NCBI GenBank assembly: GCA_963799845.1
Contig: CAWCYI010000006.1
Span: forward strand, 1,120,001 to 1,184,000
Reading direction: 5' to 3'
From: an uncultured Nitrososphaerota archaeon
Lineage (GTDB): Archaea; Thermoproteota; Nitrososphaeria; Nitrososphaerales; CADDZS01
DNA: 64,000 nucleotides
The notes beneath the pieces are model-generated. The model made no database searches and was not told the DNA's origin. It saw only the letters and a list, made by a program, of their open reading frames with translations. This document shows, piece after piece, positions 6,278-64,000 of the stretch (position 1 is its first letter; every line of letters begins with the position of its first letter). The position numbers and the translations under genes were made by a program.

Positions 6278-8406
6278 TCAGGCTTCGACAACAACCGCAA
6301 CTCTAGCAGACTTCACAGAGATCTTGCGTGACGAAAGTTGTGTGATCGGGTTTGTGAATGGTTCGTATACTTTGAAGCGCTTAGAATTTCCGCCGTCGAG
6401 AAGGACATTTACTCGCTTATTCACATCGCTAGTATTCATCAAGACAACTGCTTTCTTGTTAGCCTCCTTGTTGATGTGGACACCGTAGAGAATCCCCTCG
6501 GTCTCACCCTCAACAGTAGCGCCGACAGTATCTCTGAATTGTCCATTCCACAGATAATCACCCAGCTCCCTCCGGATTCTCACGATCTCTTTGATATAAT
6601 TTCCCAATTTCGGCGCTGAGGCGATCGTTTCATGCGCGTTATGAATTTCCACATTGATGACGTACCCGACTCTCAGACAATTGTTTATCGAGTGATAATC
6701 AAACTGATCTACACATGCAGTGAGCATGATCTCGGGAAAAGTGTATCTGCAAATGGGTGACCGATCCCAGTCTCTCAACCTGAAGAAACCTATGTTTGCG
6801 TACGGCCACAGGTAAGGAGGAGAGGCTTCGACTGATATCAGAAATTCCGGGTTGTACTTGCGACATACCTCGCTTATTCTCCTGAGCGTCTCAACTATGC
6901 CCTTGGAAAAGGCCTCGGCAGGCTTGTGACCATGGGTCTCATCGTAGCATAATCCGTAATCCGTGACTTTGTCTATTTCCAAACCGTTGAATCCCAGTTC
7001 CGCGACTTGCTCGAACCGTTCAACTATCAGATCCTGGTACGGCTTTGCATACGGACACATCAAAGCAAGCTGTCGGTACCCCCACTTGTTCTTCTCCGCG
7101 AAGGTGTGCATCCCGTATCCGATGCGCACCTGATTTCCGAATCTGTCTTTAGCAGCATATTTGTAGAGTTCTTTTTTGAATTCTCCGGTATTCACGTCCG
7201 CGACTTGGATGTTGACGAAGGGAAGCACCTTGACATCCAGCTTGTTTGCTTCCCTTATTCCTTCGGAGAGTTCCTCCCTAGTACCAAGTCTAGGGTCCGG
7301 GGAATAGTCTGGGTATCCCCTATCCATTCCTCCGCGGTGGAAGCCGGTTAAGTTGATAACATTCACTCCGTATTTTATAGCGTCTCTTGCCAACTTGGGG
7401 ATGTCCGAGAATCTGAAAAGAAGTAAATCGTCGGGATAACCAAAGACAACAGTCTCCCAGGTCATTCCTCCCGCCACCCAGTTTGGCCTCTCGGCAATCT
7501 TCATCCATGTGTCAACCCATCGGCGGTATCTGTCAGCACCACTATGCCAGTCGCCCTTGTGAAAGTTGATGCAGGCAGGCGCCGAGGCCCAGCTTTCACC
7601 CGGTTTGATGAACGGGAGCTTCGCTATGCTGCAGTTCACGCCTATCGGAGTATTCGGGCCTGCTTCTTCTCGTGTGGGCCATCGATCGAGCTTCCCCGCT
7701 GAACCATTCCGGGCTGGAGCTCAAAGTGGAAGAAAGTGACTTGAGGAGAAAGATCGTGGCTGGCAAGATAGATGCCTTCGTGCGTTTCGCCGTTACTGAA
7801 ATCAACCCATTGCATCGTCAATTCCCATGGATAGGCTAGCTCGAAATAATCATAATACTCGTTCCAATATGGAAAATAGCTCGGGAACCTGTCCAAAACC
7901 TTTCTTCCGAAGCTTGGAGTACCGGAGCCGTCCCATAGTGCGGCGGAAAACTCCGTTTTCTTTCTGTCTCTGATCCCGTGGAAACCGCCTAGCATTGGGG
8001 ACCAAACCTCCTCGATTGTGTACTTGCTTCCATTGCTTACAGATGTTGTCACCTGAATCTCGTTTTCCTCTGGCCCTAATTCGAAAGACTGTTTCAGACC
8101 TATCTCGAATGTACCGTTCTTATTCTGGAGATTGTCCCAAGACAGAGTGCATGAATTCTTTGCGCTTTCGAATCGAACGAGCTTCTGCTGTGAACCAACC
8201 AGATAGTTGTGCCTTAGTTCTGGAAGCGGTACGAGAAGTTTGAAGTTCGAAGCGAGTCTCGGCTCACCGATCGCTTCAAAATGCGATTTTTTGTGGAACA
8301 CGCTCTTGAGCGCCCCCGTTGCTATCTCAAACTTCAGCTTGAAGGTGTCGTTCTCAAGTTTGTATTGCATAATGACACAAGAAACCTTCTCATTATTAAG
8401 AATCAT
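6278..8406 (-). CDS. DUF6259-like glycoside-hydrolase-like protein, split by a single frameshift near 7690
   Basis: ORFs 7642..8406 and 6278..7639 join if one base is added at about 7688-7697 (...MVQRG/LDRWPTREEAGPNTPIGVNCS...), giving about 709 aa. Motifs HKGDWHSGADRYR, GGMDRGYPDYSPDPRLG, GFNGLEIDK. Confidence 0.7.
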
Positions 8407-8606
8407 TTACGTAAGATATGACGAAAGGAACACCATTGATTGAGTGGGAAATACCCCACCTTCAATATAGTCGTATACAGACATTTTTACTCATTCTAAT
8501 GGCGAAAAATTAGAAGGTTCAAAACAGAGTGAAAACATGGTTAGCTTTTTCACGACTTTCTTTAATTATGGCGTTGTAAACAGGATTACGAACAAGGGGA
8601 CAACAG

Positions 8607-10067
8607 ATGACTACAGAGATTTTGAATTTCATTTCAGGCCAGTGGGTAAAATCGGAAACCGGCGAGACGTTTCAAAACGTTAACCCGGCTCACACGTCAA
8701 TCCCGACGGGTGCTTTTCAGGCCTCAAGTAAGGAGGATTCGCGGAGGGCCATTCACTCCGCAGCAGAAGCTTTTCCGATATGGAGAAACACGCCTGCCCC
8801 TCAGAGGGGAAAAATTCTGTATGCCGCATCCAATATACTGGAAAGCCAGGCGGACGAGCTCTCAAAGATTCTGACGCAAGAAGAGGGGAAAACTATCGCG
8901 GAAAGCAAAGGAGAAGTCCAAAGATCGATAGATATTTTCCGATACTATGCCGGTATCGGCAGTCGCCTCGCCGGTAAAACCTTCCAGTCTGGAATCAAGA
9001 GAACTCTGCTCTACTCGGTCCGAGAGCCGCTTGGGGTAATCGCTATTATGACGCCATGGAATTTTCCGATAGCGATACCGACGTGGAAGATCGCGCCTGC
9101 CCTAATTTCTGGGAATACGATAGTTTTCAAGCCTGCGTCTCTTACGCCGCTGATTGCCCAAAAGATGACTTTATCTCTTGAAAAAGCAGGCCTGCCAAAA
9201 GGAGTCCTGAATTATGTTACCGGAGCTGGCTCGGTTGTAGGAGCCGAGTGAAGTGTCAATCCGGATGTAGATGCAATCTCATTCACCGGTTCGTACGAGG
9301 TTGGGTATGGCATTCAGAAAGCCCGTGCAAACTCAAGCAAAATAGCAAGGATTCAGCTTGAGATGGGCGGCAAGAACCCAACTATAGTCCTGCCAGATGC
9401 GAACTTGGATGAAGCAGTCTCGCTTGTCGCGAAGAGTGCATTTGGACTGACAGGTCAGGCATGTACTGCCACCAGTCGCGTAATAGTTCATGAGGAGGTG
9501 AAGCAGCGGTTCGTTGAGAAGCTGAAAGCCGAAGCCAATCAGACAAAAATCGGAGATGGACTGCAACCTGCTACGATGATGGGTCCGGCGGTTTCTGATC
9601 CTGAACTCCAGAAAGATCTTCGATATGTTGGCATCGGCATAGAAGAGGGTGCCAAACTCGTAGCCGGTGGTGAACGAATTAGGGGCGAAGGACTGGAGGA
9701 CGGATATTTTATCCGGCCGACGATATTCGACGAAGTTTCTTCAGATATGACAATTGCGAAAGACGAGATATTCGGCCCTGTTATCTCGGTGATGAATGCG
9801 AAAAATCTGGATGAAGCAATCCAAATCGCAAATAATGCCGAGTTTGGTCTGACTGCAGGATTATGCACCTCGAATCTCTCAAGCGCGCTCAGTTTCGCGG
9901 ACAAAGTTGATGCCGGAGTTATCAAGATAAACAAGATGACGACCGGTCTTGAGCTGCACGTGCCATTCGGGGGCTTCAAGAAATCGAGCGCGAACACGTT
10001 CAAAGAACAGGGAGAGGAAGCTATCGACTTTTACACCAGAACTAAGGCTGTCTACATCGGATATTGA
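8607..10067 (+). CDS. Aldehyde dehydrogenase (2,5-dioxopentanoate/KGSA dehydrogenase-like) with in-frame TGA at 9249-9251
   Basis: Both ORFs are in one frame: ...VVGAE*SVNPDVDAISFTGSYEVG...LEMGGKN...GQACT...EIFGP; 486 codons if read through. Confidence 0.85.
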
Positions 10068-10295
10068 TCGCAAACAAGCATTCACCTGTCTCTTGGCCAA
10101 CGAATTTCGGAGATAGTTTCTTGAAGTAAATTTGGCGAAGTGTTAAATATCAAAAACTCGAAATATGCCGGTACTCTTTTTCATGATCGCTAGCCCTAAA
10201 GATGTCCTTTGCGAAAATGATTTCATCGGGGCAATTGTTTGAGGAGGCAATTCCTAAGTCCTTATTCTTTCGGGAACAAATAGGAGAGAAAGCCC

Positions 10296-11291
10296 ATTCG
10301 CCTTAGAAGCAGGTTCTCGAAAAAATACCTAATCGGTAGATTCGTATCCCTATTCATTGTGCTCCTCGCGGTACTCGTTCTGAATTTTCTCTTACCCCAT
10401 CTGCTGCCAGGGGACTTTGTCGAGACCTACGCTTCGATAATTTCCGGTGCTCATCACCTTCCTTACGCTAATGTCCTTGCTAGACTCGAGAAAGTTTTTG
10501 GGAAACCTGAGCCGCTCCCGATTGCATTTGCAAACTACATGAAGCAGGTTTTATTTTCTTTTCCGCCTAACTTCGGCCCATCGTTCCAGTACTACCCGCT
10601 GTCCGCTTGGACAATAGTTCTCTTCGCTCTCCCTTGGACGCTTTTATTGCTCGGCGTCTCTCAAGCAATTGCTTGGATTGCATCCATTTTCGTAGGTGTG
10701 TACCTTGCTCTACACAAAAACAAATTCATCGATCGAACCCTGCAGCCCGCACTCTACTTTCTGAACTCTATTCCGGGTTTCTGGCTCGCTCTTATGTTTA
10801 TTTTTATATTTGCTCTCGAGCTGAAGTGGCTTCCTCCGGGGCAGGCTTATTCAGTCCTTCCAACTCTTTACACCGTGCTTGTACACTTGATTCTTCCATT
10901 ATCTGTGATCATAATCATATCACTGCCGAGCCACGTATTGGTCATACGGAGTGCCGCAATTGATATCGTTGGCAGTGATTTTGTTGCCGCTACGAAGGCC
11001 CAGGGTCTTAGTAATAGGATGATCATAAATAGAGTGTTGAGGAATTCCCTCATTCCTTCGCTAACACAGATGTTCCTCTCCGTAGGCTATTTAATCGGGG
11101 GAATAATCACTATTGAGTACGCATTCTCATATCCCGGAATGGGGACGATTATCGCTCAATCAGTTGCAATTGAAGATTTTCCAGTGATGCAGGCGGCCTT
11201 CTACGTAATTACGATTGTAGTGCTCATCTCGAACCTCGCTGCCGACTTGGTATACCCACTGATCGACCCAAGGGTGTCGTATGCAGAATAA
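10296..11291 (+). CDS. ABC transporter permease (OppB/DppB-like)
   Basis: Typical permease with LLPGD, FSYPGMG and DPRV end. Frame is open back to 10284 and includes the typical KYLIGRFVSLFIV N-terminus, so the start is probably upstream of GTG 10359 (ATT 10296 is a guess). Confidence 0.85.
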   Translation: MRLRSRFSKKYLIGRFVSLFIVLLAVLVLNFLLPHLLPGDFVETYASIISGAHHLPYANVLARLEKVFGKPEPLPIAFANYMKQVLFSFPPNFGPSFQYYPLSAWTIVLFALPWTLLLLGVSQAIAWIASIFVGVYLALHKNKFIDRTLQPALYFLNSIPGFWLALMFIFIFALELKWLPPGQAYSVLPTLYTVLVHLILPLSVIIIISLPSHVLVIRSAAIDIVGSDFVAATKAQGLSNRMIINRVLRNSLIPSLTQMFLSVGYLIGGIITIEYAFSYPGMGTIIAQSVAIEDFPVMQAAFYVITIVVLISNLAADLVYPLIDPRVSYAE

Positions 11292-12185
11292 ATGACAGCG
11301 ACCCAGACAACCTCGCGCAGCTTTATCGGTCGGCTAAGATCCGGTAACGGATTTGCAAGCTTACTTTTCAAGTCAGTATTAAAGAGAAGAGATGTTAAAG
11401 TAGGACTAGGTATTCTCGGTTTTTTCGTCATTCTTGACTTTGTGAGCGTTGTCTACCTCCCGTACAATCCGTTAGCTCCAGTATCAGTCTCGATACACAA
11501 TCCAGCGCCTCCATCTTGGAAATTTCTGTTCGGAACGACAAATTTAGGCCAGGATGTGTTCAGCGAATGGATGTTTGGTACTCAGGCGACGCTTTTCGTA
11601 GGTTTTCTTGCTGCTCTAGTTACTGCTTTACTTGGCGTTACTACCGGGATAATTGCAGGATACATGAAGATGTGGGACGAACCGCTTATGAGGGCTGCGG
11701 ATGTGATACTTACACTGCCATCGCTTCCTCTGTTGATTGTCGCGGCGGCATTTTTGAAGCCAAGTGATTTTAATGTCGCGATTTTGATTGCCGTACTGGC
11801 TTGGGCTGGTATGTCCAGAACCTTAAGGTCCTCAGTCCTTTCCCTGAAGCGTCTGCCCTTTGTTGAAGTCGCGGAGTTGAGCAACGTCCCGGCGTGGAAA
11901 ATAATGTTTGTAGACATGCTAAAGCACACCTTGCCGCTTATACTCACCTATTCCCTCTTTGCAGTCGGTGGCGCGATTCTCACGGTCGCCTCTCTCGACT
12001 TCATTGGTGTAGGTCCCGTAACTGACTACAGTTGGGGTTCAATGATTTCATTATCAAACGACAACAACGCATTGCTCCAAGGGGCATGGTGGTGGCCGGT
12101 GCCGCCGGGCTTGAGCATCGCGATTTTGGTTACGTCCCTCGCTCTAATCGCATATGGACTCGAGTCCGCCTTCAAGAACATGTAG
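11292..12185 (+). CDS. ABC transporter permease (OppC/DppC-like)
   Basis: PPSWKFLFGTTNLGQDVF, EAA-like loop, WWWPVPPG. Confidence 0.9.
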   Translation: MTATQTTSRSFIGRLRSGNGFASLLFKSVLKRRDVKVGLGILGFFVILDFVSVVYLPYNPLAPVSVSIHNPAPPSWKFLFGTTNLGQDVFSEWMFGTQATLFVGFLAALVTALLGVTTGIIAGYMKMWDEPLMRAADVILTLPSLPLLIVAAAFLKPSDFNVAILIAVLAWAGMSRTLRSSVLSLKRLPFVEVAELSNVPAWKIMFVDMLKHTLPLILTYSLFAVGGAILTVASLDFIGVGPVTDYSWGSMISLSNDNNALLQGAWWWPVPPGLSIAILVTSLALIAYGLESAFKNM

Positions 12186-12202
12186 AAGGAAATCGAAGAA
12201 AG

Positions 12203-13168: not shown

Positions 13169-13172
13169 GGCA

Positions 13173-14159: not shown

Positions 14160-14192
14160 CCCGGCAGACATTATTAGCTCGCCATAAATCGA

Positions 14193-26377: not shown

Positions 26378-26378
26378 C

Positions 26379-37124: not shown

Positions 37125-37910
37125 GTGGTATTAAACCTGAAATCACGTGACCTCTTCGATCTCTCTGGCAAGTCTGCGCTTGTGACCGGGGGTGGAAGAG
37201 GAATAGGCAAGACGATGGCCACCGCGTTAGCTGAAGCCGGGGCCGATGTTGCAATCGCCTCGCGAAATCTAGAATCTTGCATTGAGGTCGCAGGAGAAAT
37301 ATCGAAGGCGACGGGAAAGACGGTTCTCCCGGGAAAGCTTAACGTGACAGACAGAGACAGTGTCCATGAGCTCGTAACTTCCGTAGAAAAAAAATTTGGG
37401 AAGATCGACATCCTCGTGAACAACAGCGGGTCGACCTGGGGAGCCCCATTTGAAGAGATGCCGTTTGACAAGTGGGAGCAGGTCATCAAAACAAACCTCA
37501 CTGGAACTTTTCTCGTGTCCCAAGCGGTCGTCCCGATAATGAAACGCGTCGGATGGGGGAGGATAATCAATGTGTCTTCGATCGTAGGACTGGTTGCGCC
37601 GCCGGATTTCATGAGCACCATTGGTTACACAGCGAGTAAAGGAGGCATCATTTCACTTACCAGGGAGCTCGCGGTGAAGCTGGCTAAAGACAATATTATT
37701 GTAAACGCGATCGCGCCGAGCTTCTTCCCGTCCAAGATGACGAGTGCCTTCGTGCAGAAGTTCGGAGACAAGATCAGGGATTCAAATCCCATGAAAAGGA
37801 TGGGCGAGGAGGACGATCTCAAGGGTGTAGTAGTCTTCCTCGCGTCGCAGGCAGCGAGTTACATCACCGGTCAGGTAATCGCGGTCGACGGTGGCTATAC
37901 CGCAACCTGA
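37125..37910 (+). CDS. Short-chain dehydrogenase/reductase (gluconate 5-dehydrogenase-like)
   Basis: TGGGRGIG, NNSG, YTASK, ITGQVIAVDGG. Confidence 0.9.
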   Translation: MVLNLKSRDLFDLSGKSALVTGGGRGIGKTMATALAEAGADVAIASRNLESCIEVAGEISKATGKTVLPGKLNVTDRDSVHELVTSVEKKFGKIDILVNNSGSTWGAPFEEMPFDKWEQVIKTNLTGTFLVSQAVVPIMKRVGWGRIINVSSIVGLVAPPDFMSTIGYTASKGGIISLTRELAVKLAKDNIIVNAIAPSFFPSKMTSAFVQKFGDKIRDSNPMKRMGEEDDLKGVVVFLASQAASYITGQVIAVDGGYTAT

Positions 37911-39119: not shown

Positions 39120-40944
39120 TCAGGGAAAGATGCGAATGCACGGCCTCGTGAAAAGCTGCCAGTTTCCCGTAGACTTGTCATACTTTGAATTTACGAATAC
39201 ATGCCAGTTCTCATCATCAAGTTTTGGAAAGTCAGCCCTGTAACAGTATCCCGGCCATCGCGTCTCCTTCCGGAATATGGTGTGTCTCAAAACAGACTCG
39301 GCGGTCATTACTCTGTGGTGAAGCTCCCAAGCCCTTTGAAGCTGGTGCAAATCCTCAGCCGCGATGTGCGCCAGATCCTCCCTCAGCATCGTCATGAGTT
39401 CCAATCCCCGATTGAGGAGCATTTCGTTCGTCGTGTACATCGGCCCCCAGCCGCCGGCGTACTCATCCATTAACTTCTCCAGTCTAACGACGAACTGGTC
39501 AGCGTACAGGTAAGACGGGGAGATGGTTCCCTTCGTTATCAAGTTCCTCCCTAAGGAAAAATTCTTCAGCGGTTGGAATATCTCTTCCTTGAGTTTCGCC
39601 ACTGCCTTCTCCGAAACTTCAGGCAAGTCTGAATGATCCATCGCGTATGCGACCGCCGCCTTACCCGCCAGCCTGCCCTCGGTGAAAGAACCGGAAGAAA
39701 ACTTGTGGGCGGACCCGCCTATAGTATCGCCGGCACCGAACAGTCCTTCGATAGTGGTCATTCGATTGTATCCCCAGAAGTATTCCTTCGGGGAGACGTC
39801 CTGAGGGCCGCTGGCCCACGCTCCGGAGCATGTGGCGTGCGACCCCATGATGTACGGCTCTGACGTCTGTAGTTCAGACGGTCTTTTCTTCGGATCAATG
39901 TTTTGCGAAGCCCAAACTATAGTCTGGCTCATAGTCATGTCGAGGAAATCTTCGTGCCCGAGCTCCTCCTTCTCCCTCGTATCAAGAACTCTCTCGGTGT
40001 GTATGTAGATTGGCTGTCTGCCCGCCTTTATCTCTCTGAGCATGGCGTCATTTCGAAGACACGTGGGAAACGGTTTGGAATCCACGTAGTTGCCGTACAG
40101 CGCTCTCTGATCTTCAAGATACCTCAACTCATAATCCTCGCCGTACGCGTTTGTCGCTACGGCCTTCAAAGCGAGGAACCACGCACCTACGGGCCCGTAC
40201 CCATCCTTGAACCTAGTGACAACAAGCTTGTTTTCCATCTGCGTCATCTCGGCTCCCACTCCGATAATTAGGGCGTACGCAGAACCCGTGCTCCAGGGTG
40301 CATACCATGTTCTCCCCGCCCCCTCTCCCACCGATCTCGGTCGGAAGATGTGTGTCCCTCCTCCCGAGGCGACGATTACTGCATTGGCACGGAAAATGTA
40401 GAATGCTCCATCCCTTACGTGAAATCCGACTGCACCGGCGACGCGATTCGGATTTGTCTCGTCGACCAGGAGATGGGTGATCATTATTCTGTTGTAGATC
40501 TTGGTTGCAGCTTTGGTTGCAGCTTCGGCAACAATCGGTTTGTACGACTCACCGTGAATCAGGATCTGCCACCTTCCCTCCCGCTTGTAGCGCCCCGTCT
40601 GGCTGTCGTAGATTATGGGTAGGCCCCACTCTTCAAAGAGGTGCACGGTAGAATCGACGTGCCTTGCGATATCAAATTCTAGATCCTCCCTGACGAGGCC
40701 CATCAGATCGTTCCTAGTGTACCGTACAAAGTCCTCGGGGGTGTTTTCGTTCCACCGCATTCCCATGTAGCAATTGATTGCGGAGAGGCCCATCGCCACG
40801 GCCCCGCTCCGCTCAATGTGGGCCTTCTCGACGACGACCACGTTCAGATTGCGTCCCCAGTACCTCAGCTTCGTACGCGGCTCCGCATCCAGCCATCCCC
40901 CCTCCAATCACCAGGATGTCACAGTTCACGGTCCTCGTCTTCAA
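39120..40944 (-). CDS. aprA: Adenylylsulfate (APS) reductase alpha subunit; one extra base near 40866
   Basis: TTG at 40944 gives MKTRTVNCDILVIGGGMAGCGAAYEA. Removing one base joins it to RYWGRNLNVVVVEKAHIERSGAVAMGLSAINCY; also RFKDGYGPVGAWF, EPYIMGSH, HKFSSGS, RKETRWPG. About 607 aa. Confidence 0.93.
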
Positions 40945-40978
40945 GATCTATCACTTTTTCAGAGAAGGCAGCATGAAG

Positions 40979-41437
40979 TTACTTTTTGATTTGCGCAAGT
41001 GTCGGCAGCCCGCGTTCTATCTTTAGATATTCAGGTTCATGTGAAAGAAGCTGCGAGCGAATATCCTCGGGCTTTGGTTGGTCGTAGTTTTGAGGTGCCT
41101 TTATCGAGCCCCACTTTGTCGTCCGAATCGGAAACGTAAATTGATTCTTTGAGTTATCCCTGTATTTTATTTTCCAGTGAATCTCATTCTTCTCTTCGTC
41201 GCGAAGAACAGTGAGCTTGTGGTCCAAGGGAGCAAAATCTGCATAACCACGAATGTCAATTGCGTGTTGAGGGCACTCCTTCACGCAGGAGTAGCACTCC
41301 CAGCAGTAACTCGGTTCGATGTTGTAGGCCTTCCTTCCATTGAAGATGCTGTGAGTTAGGTGCATGATATCACTGGGGCAGATGTCGACGCACTTGCCGC
41401 ACCCGTCACATAATGATGCATACACGAATGTTGGCAA
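40979..41437 (-). CDS. aprB: APS reductase beta subunit (2x[4Fe-4S])
   Basis: MPTFVY-x3-CDGCGKCVDICPSDIMH, AYNIEP-x2-CWECYSCVKECP, RGYADFAPL. Confidence 0.95.
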   Translation of the reverse strand: MPTFVYASLCDGCGKCVDICPSDIMHLTHSIFNGRKAYNIEPSYCWECYSCVKECPQHAIDIRGYADFAPLDHKLTVLRDEEKNEIHWKIKYRDNSKNQFTFPIRTTKWGSIKAPQNYDQPKPEDIRSQLLSHEPEYLKIERGLPTLAQIKK

Positions 41438-44679: not shown

Positions 44680-45813
44680 TTACTCGACGTCGACCCATTT
44701 CTGCGATATACTCGATTTCTGGATCGCTTCAACGACCTGTGATACCTTCCATCCGTCGTAGAAATCAGGTTTCACCTGAGATGAATTAACGACGGCGTTC
44801 AACACTTCGTAGATTTCGTTATTCAGAGAATCCTGGAAACCAGCACCCGAGCCCGTTGCCGGAAACGAAAAAGCAGACCCGTACGGATGAACGGGGCCCA
44901 TCATGATCGCGCGATGGCCCTGCAGATCCTTTGGATCTGAATTTGAATAGTAGCTCAACTCATTCGGCTTCTCGAAGTTGAAATAGACCGATCCCTCCGT
45001 TCCGTTCACCTCGAAATCCAGGTAGACTTTCCTGCCCAGCGAAGCCCAGCTCGTCTCGAGCCGCCCAGGCACGCCGTTGTCGAAATGCAGCAGTGCGCAA
45101 GTGTAATCGTCTACATCGACTGCGGCGGATTCGGATGAAGTGTTGAGAAGTTTCCGCTCTTTGATGAAAGTGTCTTGCAATCCGCATACGGATCGAATAT
45201 CGCCGATCAGAAATCTCGAAATGTCAATGATGTGCGAACCCAGATCTGCCAGCGCTCCGCCTCCGGCCCTTTTCGAGTCGTACCGCCAAGTAAAAGGCAT
45301 GTCTGGATTTGCGCCCCAGTCTTCCAGAAAACTCGTTCGGAATTGAGTGATTTTACCCAGAGCTTGGTCGTTGATGAGTTTCTTTGTAAGCAGGACAGCC
45401 GGGAGCCTGCGGTAGTTGAACCCCATAGCGTTCACAACTCCGGCTCGCGTCGCCGCTTCGTACATCCTCCTAGCGTCGGAAGAAGACGCTGCAATTGGCT
45501 TTTCGCACAGTATGTGTTTATGGTGTTCTGCTGCCTCTACTGCCACGTCTGCGTGCAGGTAGGTCGGGGCAACTATATCGACCAGGTCGACTTCAAGAGA
45601 TGAAGTGAGCGATTTCCAGTCCGAGAAATAACTTCCAAATCCCAGCCTTGACGCAGCTTGTGATGCTAGTTCTTCGGTGGCATCGGCAATTACAGAGAAT
45701 ACCGGCTTTGCAGTTTCGAACGAATGAAGCAGAGGCACGGACTCGTATGCCAAAACGTGGGCTTTCGCGATCGCACCGCCACCGACCATACCAATTTTGA
45801 TTTGTTTTTCCAT
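44680..45813 (-). CDS. Gfo/Idh/MocA oxidoreductase (levoglucosan dehydrogenase-like subfamily)
   Basis: GGGAIAKAH, CEKP, FNYRRLPAV, FLEDW, AGGGALADLGSH, GPVHPYG. Confidence 0.9.
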   Translation of the reverse strand: MEKQIKIGMVGGGAIAKAHVLAYESVPLLHSFETAKPVFSVIADATEELASQAASRLGFGSYFSDWKSLTSSLEVDLVDIVAPTYLHADVAVEAAEHHKHILCEKPIAASSSDARRMYEAATRAGVVNAMGFNYRRLPAVLLTKKLINDQALGKITQFRTSFLEDWGANPDMPFTWRYDSKRAGGGALADLGSHIIDISRFLIGDIRSVCGLQDTFIKERKLLNTSSESAAVDVDDYTCALLHFDNGVPGRLETSWASLGRKVYLDFEVNGTEGSVYFNFEKPNELSYYSNSDPKDLQGHRAIMMGPVHPYGSAFSFPATGSGAGFQDSLNNEIYEVLNAVVNSSQVKPDFYDGWKVSQVVEAIQKSSISQKWVDVE

Positions 45814-48952: not shown

Positions 48953-50975
48953 CTAACTCGCCGGGACTACTGTGTTCAGTATTGCTGTCGTAGATTCTCC
49001 GGTGAACGTGGGGTCCAAAAGGAAGCTTTTGATTGCGCTCTTGTCATATGCGATTGAACCCGAGGCGAATGCCAGCTTTGGCGAAGCCAACCAGATGTAC
49101 GGAGCATCGTTGTAGACTTGCTTGTATGCTGCGGTGCAGAGATTGGTTAGCAGGGTCTGATTCGTGGTGGTAAAGAATCCGTTAACACACGCTGTGACAG
49201 TAGGGTTGCCATAGTTAGCATAATCTCCCCCCACACCATTCGGATTAACAAACGCAAGCCATGCATCAGCCGGAGTTGGCTCATTAGGTGCGAAGCTTGG
49301 ATAACCCATCCAAGTCATTTGGGCCTCTACTTTCGAATAATTTGATATGGATAATGCATTGGAACCATATCCCGAAACATATGGAAATGCTAGTTCTGTA
49401 GTGGGAATCACGCCAATGCTTATTGGGATGCCAATGACGCCAAGATCCGCTTGAATAACCTGCGCTCCTGATATACAGACACCACAGCCTGCTGCGACGT
49501 CGAAGGTAAGCGGTTGAAGGCTTGCCGTATTCACGCCAGATGCCTTCATGTCGGCCATCAGCTTCAGTAAGATTGTAGTTATAGGGCGGCAGGTTTCCTA
49601 GATCGTAATACTGGCTGAATGCCGCATACTCCGGTCCCAACAAGGGTGCGTAATCCCCAAAGAAAACAGATTGTCCAAAGCTCGTGTAATTTATTGCATG
49701 AACAATTGCTTGCCTGACGAGTGTGATATTCGTCGGATAACGTAGCGTGTTCATGCCTACACCCTCAATTATCATTGATTGGTTTGGTATGCTTGCGGCA
49801 CCGTATTTTGCCGGATTCTGTTGTATTAAAGGCCAGTCCTGCGCGAAAATAGTAGCTATTTGGGCCTGTCCCGTCGAAAGATCAGTGTATCTGACGAGGT
49901 CATCCGTCTTACCATAAACGAATATTGTCTTGTAGTGTCCTGGGTCGATGTATGGATCAGTTGCTATTTGAGCCGAAGTTAAATTACGACCCCAATAGTT
50001 TGGATTCTGCTGGAATTCTTCGTAACCGTTCTGGACATATTGCGTCATAATATATGGACCGGTGCCTGGGACATAGAGTGCAGAGGAGGACGGATCACTG
50101 AAGTCTGGATTGAAGCCACTGGAAGGAGTGCCAAATCCTCCGTTATTTATGATAAATTGGGAATCAACAATCATTCCAGGATACTGAACCAGCACTAAGG
50201 GCACATACGCAAATGGTACCACACGAAGAACCAGAGTGTTTGCATCAGAGCATGAAATCGGCCAGGCTGAATTCTGCATTACAGAAAGCAATTGCGAGGA
50301 GGGATTGACTATTCCAGTCCCATTCATCATGTCATCTGTGGAGACACCAAAGTTAACGCCTGTGAAATTGAAGAGTGGATAACTTTGCATAAAGTTCGAA
50401 GCATTTCCTGACACCCAGTAGACATTGTACCATTCGGCCCAGACCTGATAACAATTGAACGGATCACCGTTTGAAAAAGTGACGCCCTGTCTCAAATGAA
50501 AAGTGTAAATTGTCCCGCTTGCAGAAACGGTCCAATTCGCAGCAAGATCAGGTTCTGGCGTTACTGTCCCATTTTGATACAATGAATTCCCGTTGTCTGT
50601 TACAATACTTTGAAAGACAGACTCTAACCACCAATTACTTCCTGTAACATCGAAAAGCGCGGCGAATGGACTCGCCCCCAGTGTTGGCAAGAAAGCTTCG
50701 TCAACTGTTAGAGTGCTGGAAGGGGCAACGGAGCTGCTGCTTGATGATGTAACCGAGCTTGATGAGCTGATGGAAGAAATGGAACTGCTTGACGTTGACG
50801 ATGAAGAAGTCGAAGAGGAGCTAGTCGTGGTAGATGTGGTCGTGGATGTCGAAGCTGTCAGCAAAACTGCCGCCGCACCCGCGACTACAATAATTACAAC
50901 AATCACGACAATGATAGCTATTCTACTGATCGCGTTTAAAGTCAGAGTTTTTTTATGAATGCTCGATGAAGACAA
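48953..50975 (-). CDS. ABC substrate-binding protein family 5, split by one extra base near 49559
   Basis: YNYNLTEA joins MADMKASG when one base is removed (about 673 aa); PDLAANWTVS, LRQGVTFSNGDPF, GTGPY; N-terminal anchor plus Ser/Thr linker. Confidence 0.85.
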
Positions 50976-54282: not shown

Positions 54283-55049
54283 AACCTAACCCTAACTCCT
54301 ACGCCCCTGAGATACTCTTTCACCTCACCTACGGTCGATTCCCCGTAGTGAAAAATCGAAGCCGCAAGAGCTGCATCCGCCGCATTTGGCCCCTTCAGGA
54401 TTTTTGCAAAGTCGGAAATTTTCCCACAGCCGCCACTTGCTATGACGGGCACTGTGGTCTTCGAAACAACTGCCCTCGTCATTTCAGTATCGTAACCAAG
54501 CTTCGTTCCGTCCCTGTCAATTGAAGTAAGTAAAATCTCACCCGCTCCCTTCTGCTCCGCCTCCCTTGCCCACCAAATTGCATCAATGCCGGTGTCCAAT
54601 TTTCCTCCATACGTGCATACGGTAAGACCTGAATCTGTGGCGTTACTTCTTTTCGCATCTATCGCGACCACCACGCATTGCGCGCCGAAAATATCTGAAA
54701 GCTCGCTCACAAGCGATGGATTTTCAACCGCGCTCGTGTTGACGCTCACCTTGTCCGCGCCATTCGATAGAACGGTTCGCGCATCTTCGATTGAAGATAT
54801 CCCGCCACCGATAGTAAAGGGGATGTCGAGCTCTTTGGCGACCTTTCTGACAAGATCTACTCTTGTCTTTCGTTTCTCCTCTGAAGCCGAGATGTCCAGA
54901 AACAGCAGCTCGTCGGCACCGTCGTCGCGATATTTTCCTGCAAGCTCTACAGGGTCGCCCGCAAGTTTCAGGGATACAAAGTTCGTCCCCTTTACCACTT
55001 TGCCTTCCTTGACGTCCAGGCAGGGAATGATCCTCTTTGCGAGCGGCAT
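54279..55049 (-). CDS. hisF: Imidazole glycerol phosphate synthase cyclase subunit
   Basis: [33 protein letters not shown]. Confidence 0.97.
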
Positions 55050-56445: not shown

Positions 56446-56446
56446 G

Positions 56447-57028: not shown

Positions 57029-57029
57029 A

Positions 57030-58127
57030 TCAAAGTATCCTCCTCAGTGCGTAGAGAAGTTTTCGATTAGCTTCCATAGATCCAACAGTTATCCGGAGAA
57101 ATCCCTTCTCCCGTCCCAGCTCTGGAAAATATTTTAGTGCGATGGCGTACTTTGATAACAACTCTTCCGCGATCTCTTTCGCGTTGTTCGCCTGAACAAG
57201 AATGAAATTTGTGTCCGACTTTGGAATGACTCTAATTGAATCAAGTTTCTGCAGGGAAGCTATCAGCTCCTCGCGAAATTTCTTTGTCTTTTGCGCCCAT
57301 TCCAGTACGACATCCTTTCGCCTCAGCAGTTCTATCGCCATTGCGATCGATAGCCCGGTGACAGGATACGGATACTGAACGTCATTGTTGAATCTCTTGA
57401 TGAATTCAGCGTCGGAAGACAGGATATACCCGAGCCGCAGAGAAGCAAGGCCGAAAGCCTTTGAGAAAGTCCGCAGGATCACTAGGTTCTTGTGCGATTT
57501 CATTAGGCGTTTTGTGGCGTCGTACTTGGCGTACTCAACGTAGGCTTCGTCCAGCATGACGGTCTTGTTCGGCGAAGTATCAAGAATATCTTCAACCGTC
57601 TCGATTGGAAACTGGTTTCCCGTGGGGTTGTTTGGCGAAACGAGGGCCAGCAACTTCGCGTTGCTTTTGTGCCACGCATCCTTGACATCACCAATAGGAA
57701 GCGAAAACGGTTCTTCTGCAGTTGAGAGATTTAGCCAGAGTTCCCTGAATTTGGAGCCCTGTCTTCTCGCGAAGATCGAGTACATCGAGAAGGTCGGTGA
57801 TACTATCAGGAGTACGTCGGAGGGCTTTGGAAGTTTCATCCTGAACAAGAGGTCGATGAGCTGATCTCCTCCCACGCCTATTGCAACCGAGCTTGACGAA
57901 CAACCGCAGTACTTCGCGATCTCCTGGTTAAGGACAAGAGAATCTCCTTCATCGATTGCAGGCGGGTATATCCGAGGATCGTACTCGTCTACGCATTTGG
58001 CGAGTATCGACCGCATCAGGTTCTTGGGGAACACGATATTCTCGTTTAGATTCATTCGTTGAAGGTTCTGCTGGAAATAATTGATATTGAAAAGGGACTG
58101 CGTATATCCGAGATCTGATGTGTTCAT
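57030..58127 (-). CDS. hisC: Histidinol-phosphate aminotransferase
   Basis: SPNNPTG, DEAYVEY, RTFSKAFGLASLRLGY; position in his operon. Confidence 0.92.
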   Translation of the reverse strand: MNTSDLGYTQSLFNINYFQQNLQRMNLNENIVFPKNLMRSILAKCVDEYDPRIYPPAIDEGDSLVLNQEIAKYCGCSSSSVAIGVGGDQLIDLLFRMKLPKPSDVLLIVSPTFSMYSIFARRQGSKFRELWLNLSTAEEPFSLPIGDVKDAWHKSNAKLLALVSPNNPTGNQFPIETVEDILDTSPNKTVMLDEAYVEYAKYDATKRLMKSHKNLVILRTFSKAFGLASLRLGYILSSDAEFIKRFNNDVQYPYPVTGLSIAMAIELLRRKDVVLEWAQKTKKFREELIASLQKLDSIRVIPKSDTNFILVQANNAKEIAEELLSKYAIALKYFPELGREKGFLRITVGSMEANRKLLYALRRIL

Positions 58128-59440
58128 TGATTTTTTCTCCCACTCTTACTGAATCTCGATAGAGGGGCAGATGCGTGGTTGGGAAATCCCTCCAGATTTG
58201 CTAACCTTGAGACAAACTTCGAGCCGGCGTATAGAGAATTTTTGCTCCCAGCAACCGTAGTACATCTTTTCAGGAATCTTTCGACGCCCAGGCCCGGATA
58301 AAATCTGGCAGTGCCCCCCGTGGGCAGGATGTGGTTTGTCCCCACGATGTAATCTGAAGATGCACACGGTGCGTAATCCCCGAGGAGGATGAGTCCGGCA
58401 TTCGACAATTTTTCGGCACTGCGTTTCGGATTCTTCATCATAACTTCGAGATGTTCCGGCGCAAGTTTCTGCGAGAATTCTATCAAAAGATCTTTAGATC
58501 GCGCATAGACGCAGAATAAAATTGATCGAGAAATGTGTTCCTGTCTAGGTCGTTTAACCTCGTTGGATAGAATCTGTCTGACCGAATTGATCGTTTCTCT
58601 GGAATTGCTGGCAAGGCCGCAGATGGTGCGGTTTCCGTGTTCGGCCTGCGAGATCAGATCCTCGGCGATGTACTCAGGCTTGGCAGACTCATCGGCGACG
58701 ATTAGAAGCTCGGTGGGACCTGCGAGGCTGTCGATGAGGACGTTCTCGGATGAGCTGATCTGTTTTTTCGCCTCCGCGACGTATTCGTTTCCGGGCCCGA
58801 CTATCAAGTGAACTTTTCTGACCTGCGAAGTACCCACTGCCATGGCAGCTATAGCCTGAGCGCCGCCTAACTTGAATATCTCGGTCGCTCCGCCTAAAGA
58901 TGCTGCAACAAGCACGGAATCTGGCAGATTTCCATCACTCTTGGGAGGAGTCGCGAGGACGATCTCTTTCACCCCCGCTTCTTTGGCGGGCACGCATATC
59001 ATCAAGACGGTGCTCGGATACGCCGCGAGCCCACCTGGAACGTATCCTCCGATCCGATTGAAGGGCGAATATTTTTCAGTTATCAAAAATCCAAGTGGAG
59101 ACCGAAATTTGGTTTCCCGGAAACGCGACATTTGATTTTTTGAAAATATCCCAATCTGCTGGGCCGCCATCTTTAGGGCGCTAAGAGACGGAGGATCTAT
59201 TCTCGAGAATGCTCTTTGAATTTCCTCTCTAGTAACTACAAGATCTTTAGTTCGGGAAACGTTAGCAGAGTCGAATTTCCTTGTCAGCCTGAGGAGCTCT
59301 TCATCGCCCTTCTCTCTGACCAGACTTATGATCTCGGAGACCCGGGATGATATTTCGCTGGAATCCTTGCTGCTTCTGAGATCAGATACAACCCTACTGA
59401 CGCCCTCTATGTTCTCTACTTCGTACTCCCGAACGTTCAA
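58124..59440 (-). CDS. hisD: Histidinol dehydrogenase
   Basis: YVPGG[10 protein letters not shown], [34 protein letters not shown]. Confidence 0.97.
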
Positions 59441-59473
59441 ACCGACACCCCTGCCAGCCCTTGCTAAAAGCTT

Positions 59474-60469
59474 CTATCGAGATTCGTTACCGAACGATTC
59501 AATTTCTTCAAGCGGCAGTATCTGACGTGGCTCGTGCACGACCAATCCCTGGGACAGTTTCCTCAGAGTAGGCACCGCCTTGATCAAGTACTCCTTGTCG
59601 ATTATCGTATTGACCGAGTACCAGTTTTCGTCTGACAGCTTGCTGATGGTCGGATTCTTCAGGGCAGGCAGCGTCTTTAGTAATTTTTCGAGATTGTTTT
59701 TGTGGACGTTCACGAAAATGTGGAGCTTCTTGGAACCTTCAACAGCCCCCCTCAGCATTGACATTATGTCCAGAATCTTTTCTCGCTTTTGGGGATCCTC
59801 GAGCGCTTCGGGCGACCCAACCAGATGCGCGGTTGAATGCAGTAGGGTCTCGATCGGCACCAGACCGTTCTGTTCAAGAGTAGTTCCAGTTTCGACGACG
59901 TCCATTATCGCATCCGCGTCCTCGGGCGGCTTCGCCTCGGTCGCCCCGAATGACAAGTAAATACACGCTAGATCGTTGTCGCCCTTCGTCCACCAGGGAG
60001 TAATTTGCTTGGGAGTCTTCTTTCCAAAGAATTCGGAATAGAAGGGAAGGGACGTGAGATAGTTAGAAGCGATGTTCAGGTACTCCGTTGAAATCCTCAG
60101 TTTCTTGGAATTATTCCAGTAGCTCTTGCAAATTTCCGGGAAGCTTTTGACAGCCATAGGCTTCGGGACAGCCATGACAAGATTGACCGCGCCGTATTCA
60201 AGGTCAAGCAGGTTTACGATGTTTGCCCCTGTTTCTTTGATCCAGTCAGAACCCGTGATTCCAAGGTCCTGATCGTCCTCGGCTACAAACTGGGATATTT
60301 CCTGAGGACGAAGTATTTTGACCTCTATTTCCGAATCGTTGATCTTCGGGCGGTAAGTCCTGTCCTGGCCCCTGATTTTGTACCCGGCTCTTTCAAAGAA
60401 GGCAAAAGTTGCTTTCTCCAGCGAACCCTTTGGTAGGGCGAGTTTGATCAGCTTTCCGTCTGAACTCAT
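59474..60469 (-). CDS. hisG: ATP phosphoribosyltransferase (long form)
   Basis: ALPKGSL, LRPQEI, DLGITGSDW, SFGATE, DVVETGTTL, C-terminal regulatory domain. Confidence 0.97.
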   Translation of the reverse strand: MSSDGKLIKLALPKGSLEKATFAFFERAGYKIRGQDRTYRPKINDSEIEVKILRPQEISQFVAEDDQDLGITGSDWIKETGANIVNLLDLEYGAVNLVMAVPKPMAVKSFPEICKSYWNNSKKLRISTEYLNIASNYLTSLPFYSEFFGKKTPKQITPWWTKGDNDLACIYLSFGATEAKPPEDADAIMDVVETGTTLEQNGLVPIETLLHSTAHLVGSPEALEDPQKREKILDIMSMLRGAVEGSKKLHIFVNVHKNNLEKLLKTLPALKNPTISKLSDENWYSVNTIIDKEYLIKAVPTLRKLSQGLVVHEPRQILPLEEIESFGNESR

Positions 60470-60674
60470 TTACTTTTCCCTCCCATGTTTCGAATGAGAT
60501 TTTTGGAAGGACAGAAAAGATTCTGGTACGCGATTGAGCTATTCAGGAGGACGAAGGTTAGGAGTGAGGATTTGGTTCGCTTTTTACTCAAGCGATTGAT
60601 GAAGGCAAACACCGTCGATGAAGACAGTCACCTTTGGACAACATTTTCCACCAAAACTCTTCGTAGAAAATACA

Positions 60675-60682
60675 CTATTAAA
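60675..60682 (-). promoter_or_regulatory. Putative TATA box of his operon
   Basis: TTTAATAG on the minus strand preceded by CCGAAACAA, about 205 bp upstream of hisG. Confidence 0.35.
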
Positions 60683-60725
60683 CATTGTTTCGGCGTTGTA
60701 GTAAAAGTTCCGCGATTCCCGCGAA

Positions 60726-61370
60726 CTAGCTTGAAAAATCAATGCCAAATTCATAGACATTCATTGTAGTTTCTTCGTTTGTGATTGTGAAATACATTGA
60801 CCCACCCGATGCAATGTTTCCGGTGTAATTTATTCTTGTTCCAGATTCGGTGAAAACTGTTGTGCCGTTTTCCACGATTACTATGGAAACGCTCTGACTT
60901 GCGTTAATGGAGACCACATATTGACCCACCAGCTGGGGCGAACTGAATGCTGAACCCAATACGTTTTGCTTTATCGATTGATTTGGTTGAAGGTTGGCAG
61001 AGCATTCGAAGTAGATTGAATTGATGAAGGTGATATTGTCATCATAATTATTGACAAAACAAAGGTTGCTAACGGATGATTTCGAAACGGTCGTTTCTGT
61101 TGAAGTAGACATAGATGAAGTAGATGTCGCGGTTGTAACAGTAGCCGAACTAGTAGCTGAGCCCGTAGCCGAACTCGATGTCAAACTGCTAGCCGAACTT
61201 GATGTTGAACCACTCAGACTGGATGAAGTCGCAGGAAGTGTAGTCGTTGAGCTAATGCTCGTTTGACCACCGACGTGAGAATTTTGAAGAGCAAGATAAG
61301 TGCCCACTGTCGCGATAACTATGATCACTACCACAATAATTGTCTTTGTTTTAGTTATCAGGGCGACCAT
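60726..61370 (-). CDS. Hypothetical membrane-anchored surface protein with Ser/Thr linker
   Basis: N-terminal hydrophobic anchor, long S/T tract, beta-rich C-terminal domain. Confidence 0.7.
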   Translation of the reverse strand: MVALITKTKTIIVVVIIVIATVGTYLALQNSHVGGQTSISSTTTLPATSSSLSGSTSSSASSLTSSSATGSATSSATVTTATSTSSMSTSTETTVSKSSVSNLCFVNNYDDNITFINSIYFECSANLQPNQSIKQNVLGSAFSSPQLVGQYVVSINASQSVSIVIVENGTTVFTESGTRINYTGNIASGGSMYFTITNEETTMNVYEFGIDFSS

Positions 61371-61453
61371 TTCCTACGTATACTGTCGGCTTGTATTTTT
61401 GATTCAGCCCCTACAAGCGCTGGCTGGAGCCTTGAACTTTTTCCGATGAAGTC

Positions 61454-61775
61454 TCATTGTTCTTTAAAGTGCGAGCTAAGGTACTCTAGGTCGTCCTCAA
61501 GTCGCCTGTGATTCTCTTTATGGCTCTTGTTCATCACAACCAAAGCGTTGATCTTCTCCACAACCTCTGCATATCCGTATTCATGGACTGCCTTGTTCAG
61601 CGCATCCCTTCTCTTAAGCTGCCCCTCTTCGACCCTGTAGCCCTGTTGTATAAGCGATCCTGCGTGCTTGATTCCAGAGCTAGGATAATCATGATGGCGG
61701 TCTTCCTTCCTCTTCGATCTTTCAGCCTGCCTCTTCTCTCAGCTCCGTCCTGGAATCTCTCTCCTCTTTGCTCAT
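61454..61775 (-). CDS. Small DUF5771-like protein, split by one extra base at about 61740; not in the ORF track
   Basis: Removing one base gives a 106-aa ORF: MSKEERDSRTELEKRQ...GSLIQQGYRVEEGQLKRRDALNKAVHEYGYAEVVEKINALVVMNK...DDLEYLSSHFKEQ*. Confidence 0.65.
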
Positions 61776-62149
61776 GGATAGCTACTCTCCGGTTGTGAGT
61801 CTCTTGCCAAAAGCCTGTCTGACGTTATTGTTTGGAGCCTCAACTTCTCCACTGGGAAGATGAAGATGGGAACCGTATTTAGACCTTCATTTAGGCAGTG
61901 TCCTGTTTCGTCACCGGTTGGTGGTTACTCTACGGCTCAAGGACGATCTACCAATCAGGGAGTCAAATTTTGGCTATGCAGCTACGGCGTACCATACGAC
62001 ACCATGAGAATACCATCTGCAGTTATATCCTCGTATTTCCAACTTACTCTGCCGTTATCTAATTTCGTTTCATTCACTTTAAGATTCATATAGCTCCCGC
62101 TGCTTCGCTGCTTTAGATCAGTTCACATTGAAGCGTTCTTGATTCGACA

Positions 62150-62878
62150 CTATTTCTTTTGCAGCCCGTCATCAAACTTGATGCTTGCATGGCTTCCGTT
62201 GCAAAAAGGTTTGTTAACGGAGACGCCGCACCGACACAGGGTCACTCTGTTTCTCCTTTCGTACGGGACGCCATCATGCGACTCGAGGGTTATTCCTCCA
62301 CGAACCCAGAGGGGCCCGCTGCAACCAAGCGCAGGATCTTCAACGATGCCAATAGATGGGTTAAGGGGATTTTCGATTGCCTTGTCAGTCTTCTTGTCGT
62401 AAACGACCAAGCGTCCGGCTGGGCAGTGATTTGCTTCTCGTATTGCGAGTTCGCGTGCTTCGGAACCGTCCTGCTCGATTACATTCCAGATCTTGCCTTG
62501 AGGATCGCAGAACCGAGCAAATGCGCAAAGATCTTCTACATCGCTCAACTCCAATGTCGGTCCATCAAAAGTTTCGGCCTGTCTGGCATAGGGGACGCGG
62601 CTCGCAGTTTCCTTTCCATTGAAACCAATCTCAGAGTGAGTGCCATCACAGAAAGGAATGTTTTTTGAATGACCGCAGCGGCAAAGTTTGTAAGTACCTT
62701 TTGTCTCGAACTTTCTGCCTTCAATCCAGTCCCAGGAAAAACCCTCCTTGTTGGGCGTTATGACCTGGATGCTTAGAGGCACATCACCAGAGACGACGTA
62801 GGGCCCATTCTTGCTTACTACAATTTTCATTTTTCCATTAGGTTCAGGCATGCCAGGAGCAGAGGTTACAGATCGCAA
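62150..62878 (-). CDS. CDGSH iron-sulfur domain protein with internal ferredoxin-like domain
   Basis: LCRCGHSKNIPFCDGTH and LCRCGVSVNKPFCNGSH, flanking CAFARFC...CPAGRL. Confidence 0.9.
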   Translation of the reverse strand: MRSVTSAPGMPEPNGKMKIVVSKNGPYVVSGDVPLSIQVITPNKEGFSWDWIEGRKFETKGTYKLCRCGHSKNIPFCDGTHSEIGFNGKETASRVPYARQAETFDGPTLELSDVEDLCAFARFCDPQGKIWNVIEQDGSEARELAIREANHCPAGRLVVYDKKTDKAIENPLNPSIGIVEDPALGCSGPLWVRGGITLESHDGVPYERRNRVTLCRCGVSVNKPFCNGSHASIKFDDGLQKK

Positions 62879-62976
62879 ATAAAGTAAATGTTAGCTGGAT
62901 ACACATGCTTGCATTCGAATTGAAGACGTTTCCAGAGCTACTTCCACAGTAAGATCTTCAAAAATTATCTTTTGAA

Positions 62977-63278
62977 CTATTGTTTCTGCAGTCCAACATT
63001 GAACAGCAGTTCGTAAGTCCCATCATTCTTCCTTTCTTTTTTCCAGTTTAGTTCATTTATTTTGTAAAGTCCTTTCAGTGCGGTTCCATCATCCGTCAAA
63101 ATTTCAATTTCCTCCGTGTGACCTTCTCTCAGCTTGTACAAATCTTCTTCAGTCTGCTTGAGATCTTTCTCGGATTGTATGCGACCCCTGATCCGATCGA
63201 GCCGCCAGCGTAAGATGTGATCGTATACTGAGCCTGCTCGCTCCTTGCAAACACGACGTTACCGATTTTGACAAACAT
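62977..63278 (-). CDS. Hypothetical protein of about 100 aa, split by one missing base at about 63202; not in the ORF track
   Basis: MFVKIGNVVFARSEQAQYTITSYAG joins LDRIRGRIQSEKDLKQ...GLYKINELNW...LFNVGLQKQ* with one added base. Confidence 0.55.
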
Positions 63279-63323
63279 TCCCGATCGAACTGGATGAAAT
63301 TTGCACGAATAGAGTGCAGCGAT

Positions 63324-63593
63324 CTACCTTGTGATTACGGCAATTATCTTTCCATTGGCATTGTCCCTTACGTTGATCTGTTGCGGATGAACCGCAAACA
63401 CAACGAAACCCAGACAATCGACGAGCTCTTGCGTTACTCCAGAAGCCGACTTTCCCGCGCTACCCGCCGAAATCATCGCATCCATCGCTTTCCTTGTCTT
63501 CGGTACTCCGTTCTTCGATATTTCCCGCACTACATCTGGCTCGTTGTAGAATCTTGCTCTTTGAGCAATGTCCGCTTCTTTGTTGTTTGACAT
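63324..63593 (-). CDS. Hypothetical protein
   Basis: 89-aa ATG ORF co-directional with neighbours; TTTATA about 37-42 bp upstream. Confidence 0.5.
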   Translation of the reverse strand: MSNNKEADIAQRARFYNEPDVVREISKNGVPKTRKAMDAMISAGSAGKSASGVTQELVDCLGFVVFAVHPQQINVRDNANGKIIAVITR

Positions 63594-63720
63594 AATACTT
63601 GACTAACCGTTTTCTGGATATCGCGAGATATAAACCACAATGGCGACGTGACGAGTGATAGCTCTGCTTTCTCTAGAAGGCCTTGCGAATTGCAAAAGTG
63701 GAACGGCGCGAACGGTAGGG

Positions 63721-64000
63721 CTAACGATAGTATGAAACCGCAACCCTTTCCGGCGGTTTGCCATCTCGCGATGACCGAACTTTCCTTATTGCATCCTCGA
63801 AGTGTTTCATGTTCACGATTGCTTCCGAGACGTGTTTTTTGGCGTCCTCAGGCTTTGGATAAGCCGAGATGAATTCCTGGAGAACGAGCGATACAGCAGT
63901 ATTGACCACGGTAGTAATGTCTGCACCGCTCAATCCATCTGTCAGCTCGGCAAGCCTATCTCAGCTCCATGCCTGCTACGATCTGCTTACCTTGCGTGTG
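63721..64000 (-). CDS. cdc48: CDC48/VCP AAA ATPase, C-terminal fragment (one extra base at about 63962)
   Basis: HTQGKQIVAGMEL/DRLAELTDGLSGADI...HFEDAIRKVR, ending in a penultimate-Tyr tail (YYR); runs off the window edge. Confidence 0.8.

Follow-up and report, generated by a model that had tools for sequence, protein, structure and literature searches.

Assemblies built from long reads are known to carry insertion and deletion (indel) errors at homopolymers, which introduce false frameshifts, lower the apparent completeness of a genome and are removed by short-read polishing. Modified bases also leave errors: in bacteria, methylated words give rise to nanopore errors that are specific to the word and at odds with Illumina data, chiefly as A/G and C/T ambiguity (PMC11610573, available text), and further A-to-G and G-to-A errors arise near methylation motifs when native DNA is sequenced (10.64898/2026.01.14.699587, available text). 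Among Thaumarchaeota, the accessible parts of two further sources place a mark at AGCT, as N4-methylcytosine (m4C) associated with M.Nca01I, M.NspBD3I and M.TarMY3I (PMC11033074) and as a modification ratio of 82-91% in two marine metagenome-assembled genomes, or MAGs (10.1101/2021.05.08.442635). Here we examine a 64,000-nucleotide stretch of a soil archaeon of the Nitrososphaerota (G000:C6:1120001-1184000, hereafter the window), in which unrelated genes carry reading frames broken at AGCT, and we argue that these breaks are assembly errors very probably caused by modification of this word. The original prediction, made from the letters of the window, had invoked both motif-specific nanopore errors from modified bases and AGCT cytosine methylation in the phylum.

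The window belongs to a highly contiguous metagenome assembly (G000) of 4,603,561 bases in 9 contigs, the largest of 2.1 Mb, with a GC content of 47%, zero N and an estimated completeness of 86.7%. In AprA, the public genomes closest to it are metagenome-assembled Nitrososphaerota/Thaumarchaeota, at 74-89% identity. No member of the amoA family was found in this 86.7% complete assembly or in one genome of the same genus; as a positive control, the family was present in 3/3 complete genomes from three other families of the same order. For comparison with reads we used three soil-metagenome runs (X1, X2 and X3), in the form of Logan contigs, with 0.89, 0.48 and 0.17 of the sampled words of the stretch found across the three; there was no RNA run among the sequencing runs sharing the stretch. 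One loose contig end carries what we take to be a Nextera adapter, so the runs are short-read libraries. Contigs were compared with the assembly over 20 kb (locus L081, window 44501-64500).

Four minus-strand genes of the window carry the same break:

40865..40870, minus strand: aprA; TCAGCT (coding-strand AGCTGA), one base too many, with the frame change between the FAD-binding N-terminus and the remaining AprA
49558..49563, minus strand: SBP_bac_5 (peptide-binding) protein; TCAGCT in the assembly, true TAGCT, the base omitted by the reads being L081 5059 (window 49559)
61739..61744, minus strand: DUF5771 protein of about 105 aa; TCAGCT in the assembly, true TAGCT, with the omission at L081 17240 (window 61740) in X1 and X2
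63961..63966, minus strand: Cdc48-like AAA ATPase; TCAGCT in the assembly, true TAGCT, with the omission at L081 19462 (window 63962) in X1 and X2

As had been predicted, the hexamer TCAGCT stands on the plus strand at all four places (from 40865, 49558, 61739 and 63961), and three-frame translation shows each gene changing frame there. Pfam matches identify AprB (the beta subunit of adenylyl sulfate, or APS, reductase) adjoining AprA (a FAD-binding flavoprotein) and assign SBP_bac_5 to the binding protein, while the DUF5771 match sits in the downstream 94-aa frame. A housekeeping gene is indeed affected, the Cdc48-like gene having its AAA match upstream and its AAA_lid_3 match downstream in different frames. 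The hexamer falls in two codon phases across the four genes: in aprA and the binding protein the codons of the upstream frame are GAA GCT GAx, with TGA in neither coding frame, and in the DUF5771 and Cdc48-like genes they are GAG CTG AGA. TCAGCT is not over-represented in the window, with 43 occurrences over the two strands where shuffles give 36.0 +/- 6.6 (AGCT itself occurs 275 times), and its presence at 4/7 of the window's breaks is far above expectation. Among 53 other long frames included in the window Pfam scan, most match full-length and no further split gene was seen. An AGCTGA at 37229, which had been scored as a candidate, lies inside an intact short-chain dehydrogenase gene, and the frames that it would join are antisense.

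The repair proposed earlier, from AGCTGA to AGCTA, is found exactly in the short-read contigs at three of these sites and is backed by relatives at the fourth. In an alignment of aprA, 7/7 relatives have GAA GCN (AGG/AGA/CGC) TAC TGG, reading E-A-R-Y, and the window (GAAGCTGAGGTAC) has one base more than all seven, the surplus being a T or a G. When this alignment and the reads at the other three sites are taken together, AGCT[G]A is the solution common to all four. The genes for aprA, the peptide-binding protein, the DUF5771 protein and the Cdc48-like ATPase are intact and should be treated as such.

Over the 20 kb, the assembly and the short-read contigs differ in six small places, three indels and three substitutions. 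The indels are all one-base omissions in the reads, each of the C of TCAGCT (true TAGCT), at 49559, 61740 and 63962; X1 shows 3/3 (at 49559 with a depth of 5.4 of 5.4) and X2 shows those at 61740 and 63962, so the extra base is absent at all three of the claimed TCAGCT sites that the reads could check, a comparison for which the original prediction had called. The substitution errors, which are not stranded, are as follows:

45331: A in the assembly, G in the reads (X1, X2, X3); true AGCT, assembly AACT
46095: A in the assembly, G in the reads (X1, X2); true AGCT, assembly AACT
57543: G in the assembly, A in the reads (X1 only); true AAGCT, assembly AGGCT

X2 thus covers and agrees with X1 at 45331, 46095, 61740 and 63962, and X3 at 45331. 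All six differences (6/6) lie inside a true AGCT, of which there are some 98 in the 20 kb, an outcome with a chance of about 6e-10 when a tolerance of ±1 base is allowed, and this is the signature expected from a motif-specific modification. Error rates from this stretch come from a biased sample, as it was picked for holding four of the claimed sites: 6 of about 98 AGCT sites are wrong, and among those flanked by A (AGCTA/TAGCT) 30 are read right and 3 wrong (3/33). Most AGCT sites are thus right in the assembly, in line with the earlier remark that many AGCT sites read normally.

A separate feature of the read comparison is a single X1 contig that skips 91 bases in the his operon (window 54917-55009, L081 10417-10509). 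Its shorter side has only 22 letters, and loose ends lie around the place; the contig probably comes from the conserved his gene of another organism and not from a variant form of this genome.

The same word stands out genome-wide. We defined a junction interval as the overlap of two same-strand open frames, each of 100 codons or more, that differ in frame, and obtained 571 intervals of the extra-base sign and 508 of the opposite sign. In the extra-base set TCAGCT occurs in 44 intervals (p=2e-12) and AGCTGA in 40 (p=3e-10), with 12.3 expected for each, which places them first and second among 4096 hexamers; in the opposite-sign set the counts are 13 and 11, with about 11.5 expected. Dropping extra-base intervals that share 14-mers leaves 41 and 39 against 11.8 expected. 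The flanks of these intervals are diverse, no site is counted from both strands, and both orientations on the coding strand are enriched. In a position-wise test, the fifth base of each hexamer was deleted and a site was scored if two frames of at least 100 codons became joined: for AGCTGA this happens at 201/3348 sites against 77 expected, which is the highest rank of 4096 contexts (p=6e-33). The surplus of about 124 sites is a minimum, as one arm falls short of 100 codons at 3 of the window's 4 sites. Beyond the window, two predicted sites whose coding strand reads TCAGCT each have one base more at the hexamer than 3/3 relatives. Base runs do not share in the signal, GGGG being present in 80 extra-base intervals against 73 expected.

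The enrichment predicted for AGCT therefore holds at the level of the hexamers TCAGCT and AGCTGA and does not hold for the 4-mer, which is present in 152/571 intervals and is not among the 14 most enriched 4-mers; it is limited to the A-flanked hexamer. AGCTA still occurs 5544 times in the genome, at 0.90 of its Markov expectation, and so only a minority of sites flip. The frameshifts are artefacts of the assembly: the errors exist, are confined to AGCT, do not depend on orientation and are absent from short reads.

As to cause, we consider it highly probable, on well-motivated grounds, that modification of AGCT confused a long-read base caller. The assembly would have been built from long reads of native DNA, probably nanopore reads, as its contiguity (9 contigs, the largest of 2.1 Mb) and the type of error suggest. 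The organism, like other members of its phylum, would methylate AGCT, probably at N4 of the cytosine; the modified base would distort the signal so that the base caller misreads part of the reads, and the consensus would flip at a minority of AGCT sites. With A/T next to AGCT (true TAGCT, or AGCTA), an extra base would sometimes be called, giving TCAGCT (AGCTGA), shifting the frame by one and creating false pseudogenes; at other AGCT sites A would be called for G, or G for A.

The complement of predicted methylases leaves room for such an enzyme. By profile matches it is rich, with 12 matches to PF01555 (N6/N4 methylases) and no match in the assembly to PF00145 (C5 methylases). The TSPPY/TSPPF form of motif IV is a mark of N4-cytosine enzymes, and three of the matches carry it:

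G000:C8:12140-12946: PF01555 methylase with TSPPY
G000:C6:1380695-1381639: PF01555 methylase with TSPPY
G000:C4:1979746-1980624: PF01555 methylase with TSPPF

Both TSPPY enzymes are closely related to proteins of their own family and of some other families; one of the two has relatives of 57-83% identity in 6/8 of the genomes searched from its own family and in 8 genomes from five other families of the order. The search for an AGCT-specific methyltransferase that had been suggested thus yields candidates of the N4 type, with AGCT specificity assigned to none of them. Besides several smaller PF01555 proteins, the assembly also contains three large paralogous PF01555 methylases of 618-654 aa with DPPF (G000:C4:33904-35853, 210555-212516 and 213682-215535), two of which lie 1.2 kb apart.

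Several points weigh against modification as the cause. We infer both the AGCT modification and the sequencing chemistry. AGCT sites are mostly read correctly. The word shows no depletion in the genome (ratio 1.10), and hence nothing points to a cognate restriction enzyme. A comparison of methylase conservation in 81 genomes of the order tied no enzyme to AGCT specificity, and both TSPPY enzymes are only weakly matched in the complete, amoA-bearing genomes of the order. Two further predicted sites did not bear out the error: G000:C4:897955 is an ordinary stop/start gene boundary with no indel, and the alignments at G000:C6:1307369 are unconvincing. All three read sets come from one study, and the best-matching run may be the source sample of the assembly; reads from the same sample suit a check for errors and are not an independent biological replication. 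Lastly, the methylation-error papers describe substitutions in their accessible text, with the word 'indel' absent from that of PMC11610573, and so a one-base insertion is not a documented signature of methylation there. A literature search that left supplements aside found no paper on AGCT-linked (nanopore) frameshift errors.

Because an insertion-type mis-call is unusual, the mark could be a different or bulkier modification of cytosine. In its fullest form, this idea would have the error fingerprint reflect near-complete AGCT modification, in a large-genome member of the ammonia-oxidizer order where amoA was not found, by an orphan N4-type methylase distinct from the enzyme of the ammonia oxidizers, with a mark that is perhaps not plain m4C; we offer it tentatively and think it rather unlikely. 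Were it true, public long-read MAGs could be mined for modification fingerprints without raw signal.

Among explanations that dispense with modification, the one that survives best is a base-caller or polisher error tied to the context TAGCT/AGCT in any DNA. It would readily yield errors that are strictly word-specific, as these are, and it gains from the fact that no methylase was tied to AGCT and that the accessible text of the methylation-error literature describes no errors of the insertion type. We nevertheless regard it as unlikely. Current base callers read unmodified DNA accurately at such simple words, and the fact that a minority of sites is affected (3/33 A-flanked sites in the 20 kb) is more in keeping with a signal near the decision boundary than with a fixed bug in the software. 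The A/G substitutions found alongside also match the methylation-linked bias published in 10.64898/2026.01.14.699587 (available text), and AGCT is the one word known, from the accessible literature, to be heavily methylated in the phylum.

It is far less probable that the indels are real, whether as mutations that shift the frame or through a hotspot of mutation at AGCTGA, and that the genes are pseudogenes. The assembly does show indels, and they recur at one word; yet real lesions are contradicted because neither the short reads nor the relatives have the extra base: short-read contigs lack 3/3 checkable indels (in two samples for two of these), and the relatives lack the extra base of aprA and likewise of the two sites outside the window. 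The affected genes include housekeeping genes (Cdc48-like, AprA), moreover, and some 124 excess sites genome-wide would put much of the proteome out of action. Least credible of all is that the DNA is correct and that programmed +1 ribosomal frameshifting or transcript editing acts at AGCUGA, for although one UGA-containing hexamer is common to four genes and bears a superficial likeness to stop-linked +1 shifting, recoding and editing are excluded because the extra base is not in the DNA (3/3 sites covered by short reads) and neither orientation nor phase is fixed, the reverse-complement hexamer being equally enriched on the coding strand (44 vs 40 intervals, no shared sites), two sites with TCAGCT on the coding strand being confirmed against relatives, and the break falling in two codon phases with the TGA of aprA and the binding protein in neither coding frame, as the earlier argument from phase had held.

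Three further breaks in the window had been assigned to the same pattern, and they fit it less well:

7689..7697, minus strand: DUF6259-like gene; on the coding strand, GGGG and AAGCT have lost one base between them
9249-9251, plus strand: ALDH gene; in-frame TGA stop where relatives have Leu (2) or Met (2)
63185..63200, minus strand: 100-aa gene; base missing at GGA^TC (about 63192) within TCGATCGGATCAGGGG, with no AGCT

For the DUF6259-like gene, three homologues of 696-698 aa found by protein search read QPGMVQRG followed by KLDRWP without a gap across the junction, and the assembly, with CAGCGGGGAAGCTCGAT, therefore lacks a base between GGGG and AAGCT; a search among relatives within the family returned a C-terminal fragment alone. 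The predicted place, AGCT 7689-7692, is right to within one base on the 5' side, and the sign is not, as a base is missing here where the other AGCT breaks have one too many. The break is either AGCT-linked or a homopolymer error in the G-run or A-run, and both fit equally well; AGCT contexts do not stand out in the genome-wide insertion model. In the ALDH gene the Aldedh match is divided at profile positions 198/203. An origin of its TGA from AGCTA is possible; AGTGA stands at 19/221 in-frame junctions genome-wide against a baseline of 4.8% (p=0.01, uncorrected over 16 contexts), a signal too weak to serve as support. For the 100-aa gene, 36 homologues were found, and the eight inspected read AGGSIG followed by IRGRIQ or close variants (GGGSIG, MGGSIG and SADTIG for the first part, one each), which places the missing base at about 63192 inside TCGATCGGATCA. 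The repair proposed at 63202 was wrong: it would alter residues conserved in the homologues, and the break is at GGATC, not AGCT. A short-read contig ends at L081 18699, 5 bases from this break, and no contig was seen to cross the place. We note that TCGATCGGATCA holds two GATC words; the accessible text of PMC11033074 gives GATC with N6-methyladenine (m6A) as the other motif of Thaumarchaeota.

The missing-base (insertion) model, run genome-wide, has no AGCT context in its top 20, where words from a repeated element and words rich in GC prevail. Hexamers such as CCGTAG, CACCGT, ACCGTA and CCCGGA, among others, occur at missing-base junctions in 22-43 intervals each, and the whole set disappears once intervals sharing 14-mers are dropped. 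It looks like a multi-copy mobile element with overlapping frames, possibly with a -1 programmed shift in a transposase. Extra-base junctions, for their part, show a second tier of hexamers enriched about 2.7-fold, each paired with its reverse complement: CAGACT/AGTCTG is in 22 and 20-21 intervals against 7.5-7.8 expected, and CAGTAC, AGTACC and AGGTAC behave likewise. They may represent other words prone to error, such as AGCT with a mid-word insertion, or a GTAC motif.

The assembly probably contains well over a hundred false frameshifts (going by the surplus of about 124 sites at which neither arm is shorter than 100 codons), and many silent A/G errors at AGCT are to be expected besides; the false frameshifts would therefore distort its pseudogene calls, its gene counts and its completeness of 86.7%. 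Annotation is best carried out after short-read or methylation-aware polishing. The fingerprint is also indirect evidence that the AGCT marking of ammonia-oxidizing Thaumarchaeota extends to a relative in which amoA was not found, and it suggests that such a word can betray itself by a one-base insertion as well as by substitutions.

Two groups of genes in the window bear on the lifestyle of this archaeon. First, the aprBA pair (APS reductase, window 39120-41437) occurs here in a member of the ammonia-oxidizer order in which amoA was not found. Beyond a few archaeal MAGs (74-89%), the relatives of AprA are in Pelagibacterales and sulfur-oxidizing Gammaproteobacteria, at about 64%, and this distribution suggests that aprBA was laterally acquired and that the sulfite/APS metabolism it would support is unusual for the phylum. 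Second, window 4108-30368 holds a dense cluster for the uptake and breakdown of sugars and peptides by Pfam matches, with three family-5 binding proteins, ATP-binding cassette (ABC) permeases and ATPases, an alpha-L-rhamnosidase, one glycoside hydrolase of family GH2 and three of family GH4; this predicted content is consistent with a heterotrophic lifestyle.

Set beside known systems, the errors described here resemble the bacterial nanopore methylation errors, as far as the accessible accounts go, in that they are tied to a short, strain-specific word, affect only some of its occurrences, disagree with short reads and involve A/G ambiguity; the bacterial errors likewise yield false allelic differences. 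They differ in that half of the verified errors are frame-breaking one-base insertions, and in that the word is AGCT in an uncultured metagenome archaeon for which platform and modification are deduced. With the AGCT m4C systems of Nitrososphaerota, as partly available to us, they share the phylum and the four-base word, and the genome has TSPPY methylases and no C5 enzyme; those systems, by contrast, were established from PacBio kinetics in ammonia oxidizers, whereas the present case is known from sequence alone, in an organism where amoA was not found. Like homopolymer indel errors, the breaks are false frameshifts that vanish against short reads. A homopolymer origin is conceivable for the DUF6259-like break alone; unlike such errors, the excess in this assembly does not lie at base runs, and TCAGCT/AGCTGA lead all hexamers. 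What we describe is an artefact of a known kind, at a motif known in the phylum, and it is the lineage and the insertion-type signature that are new.

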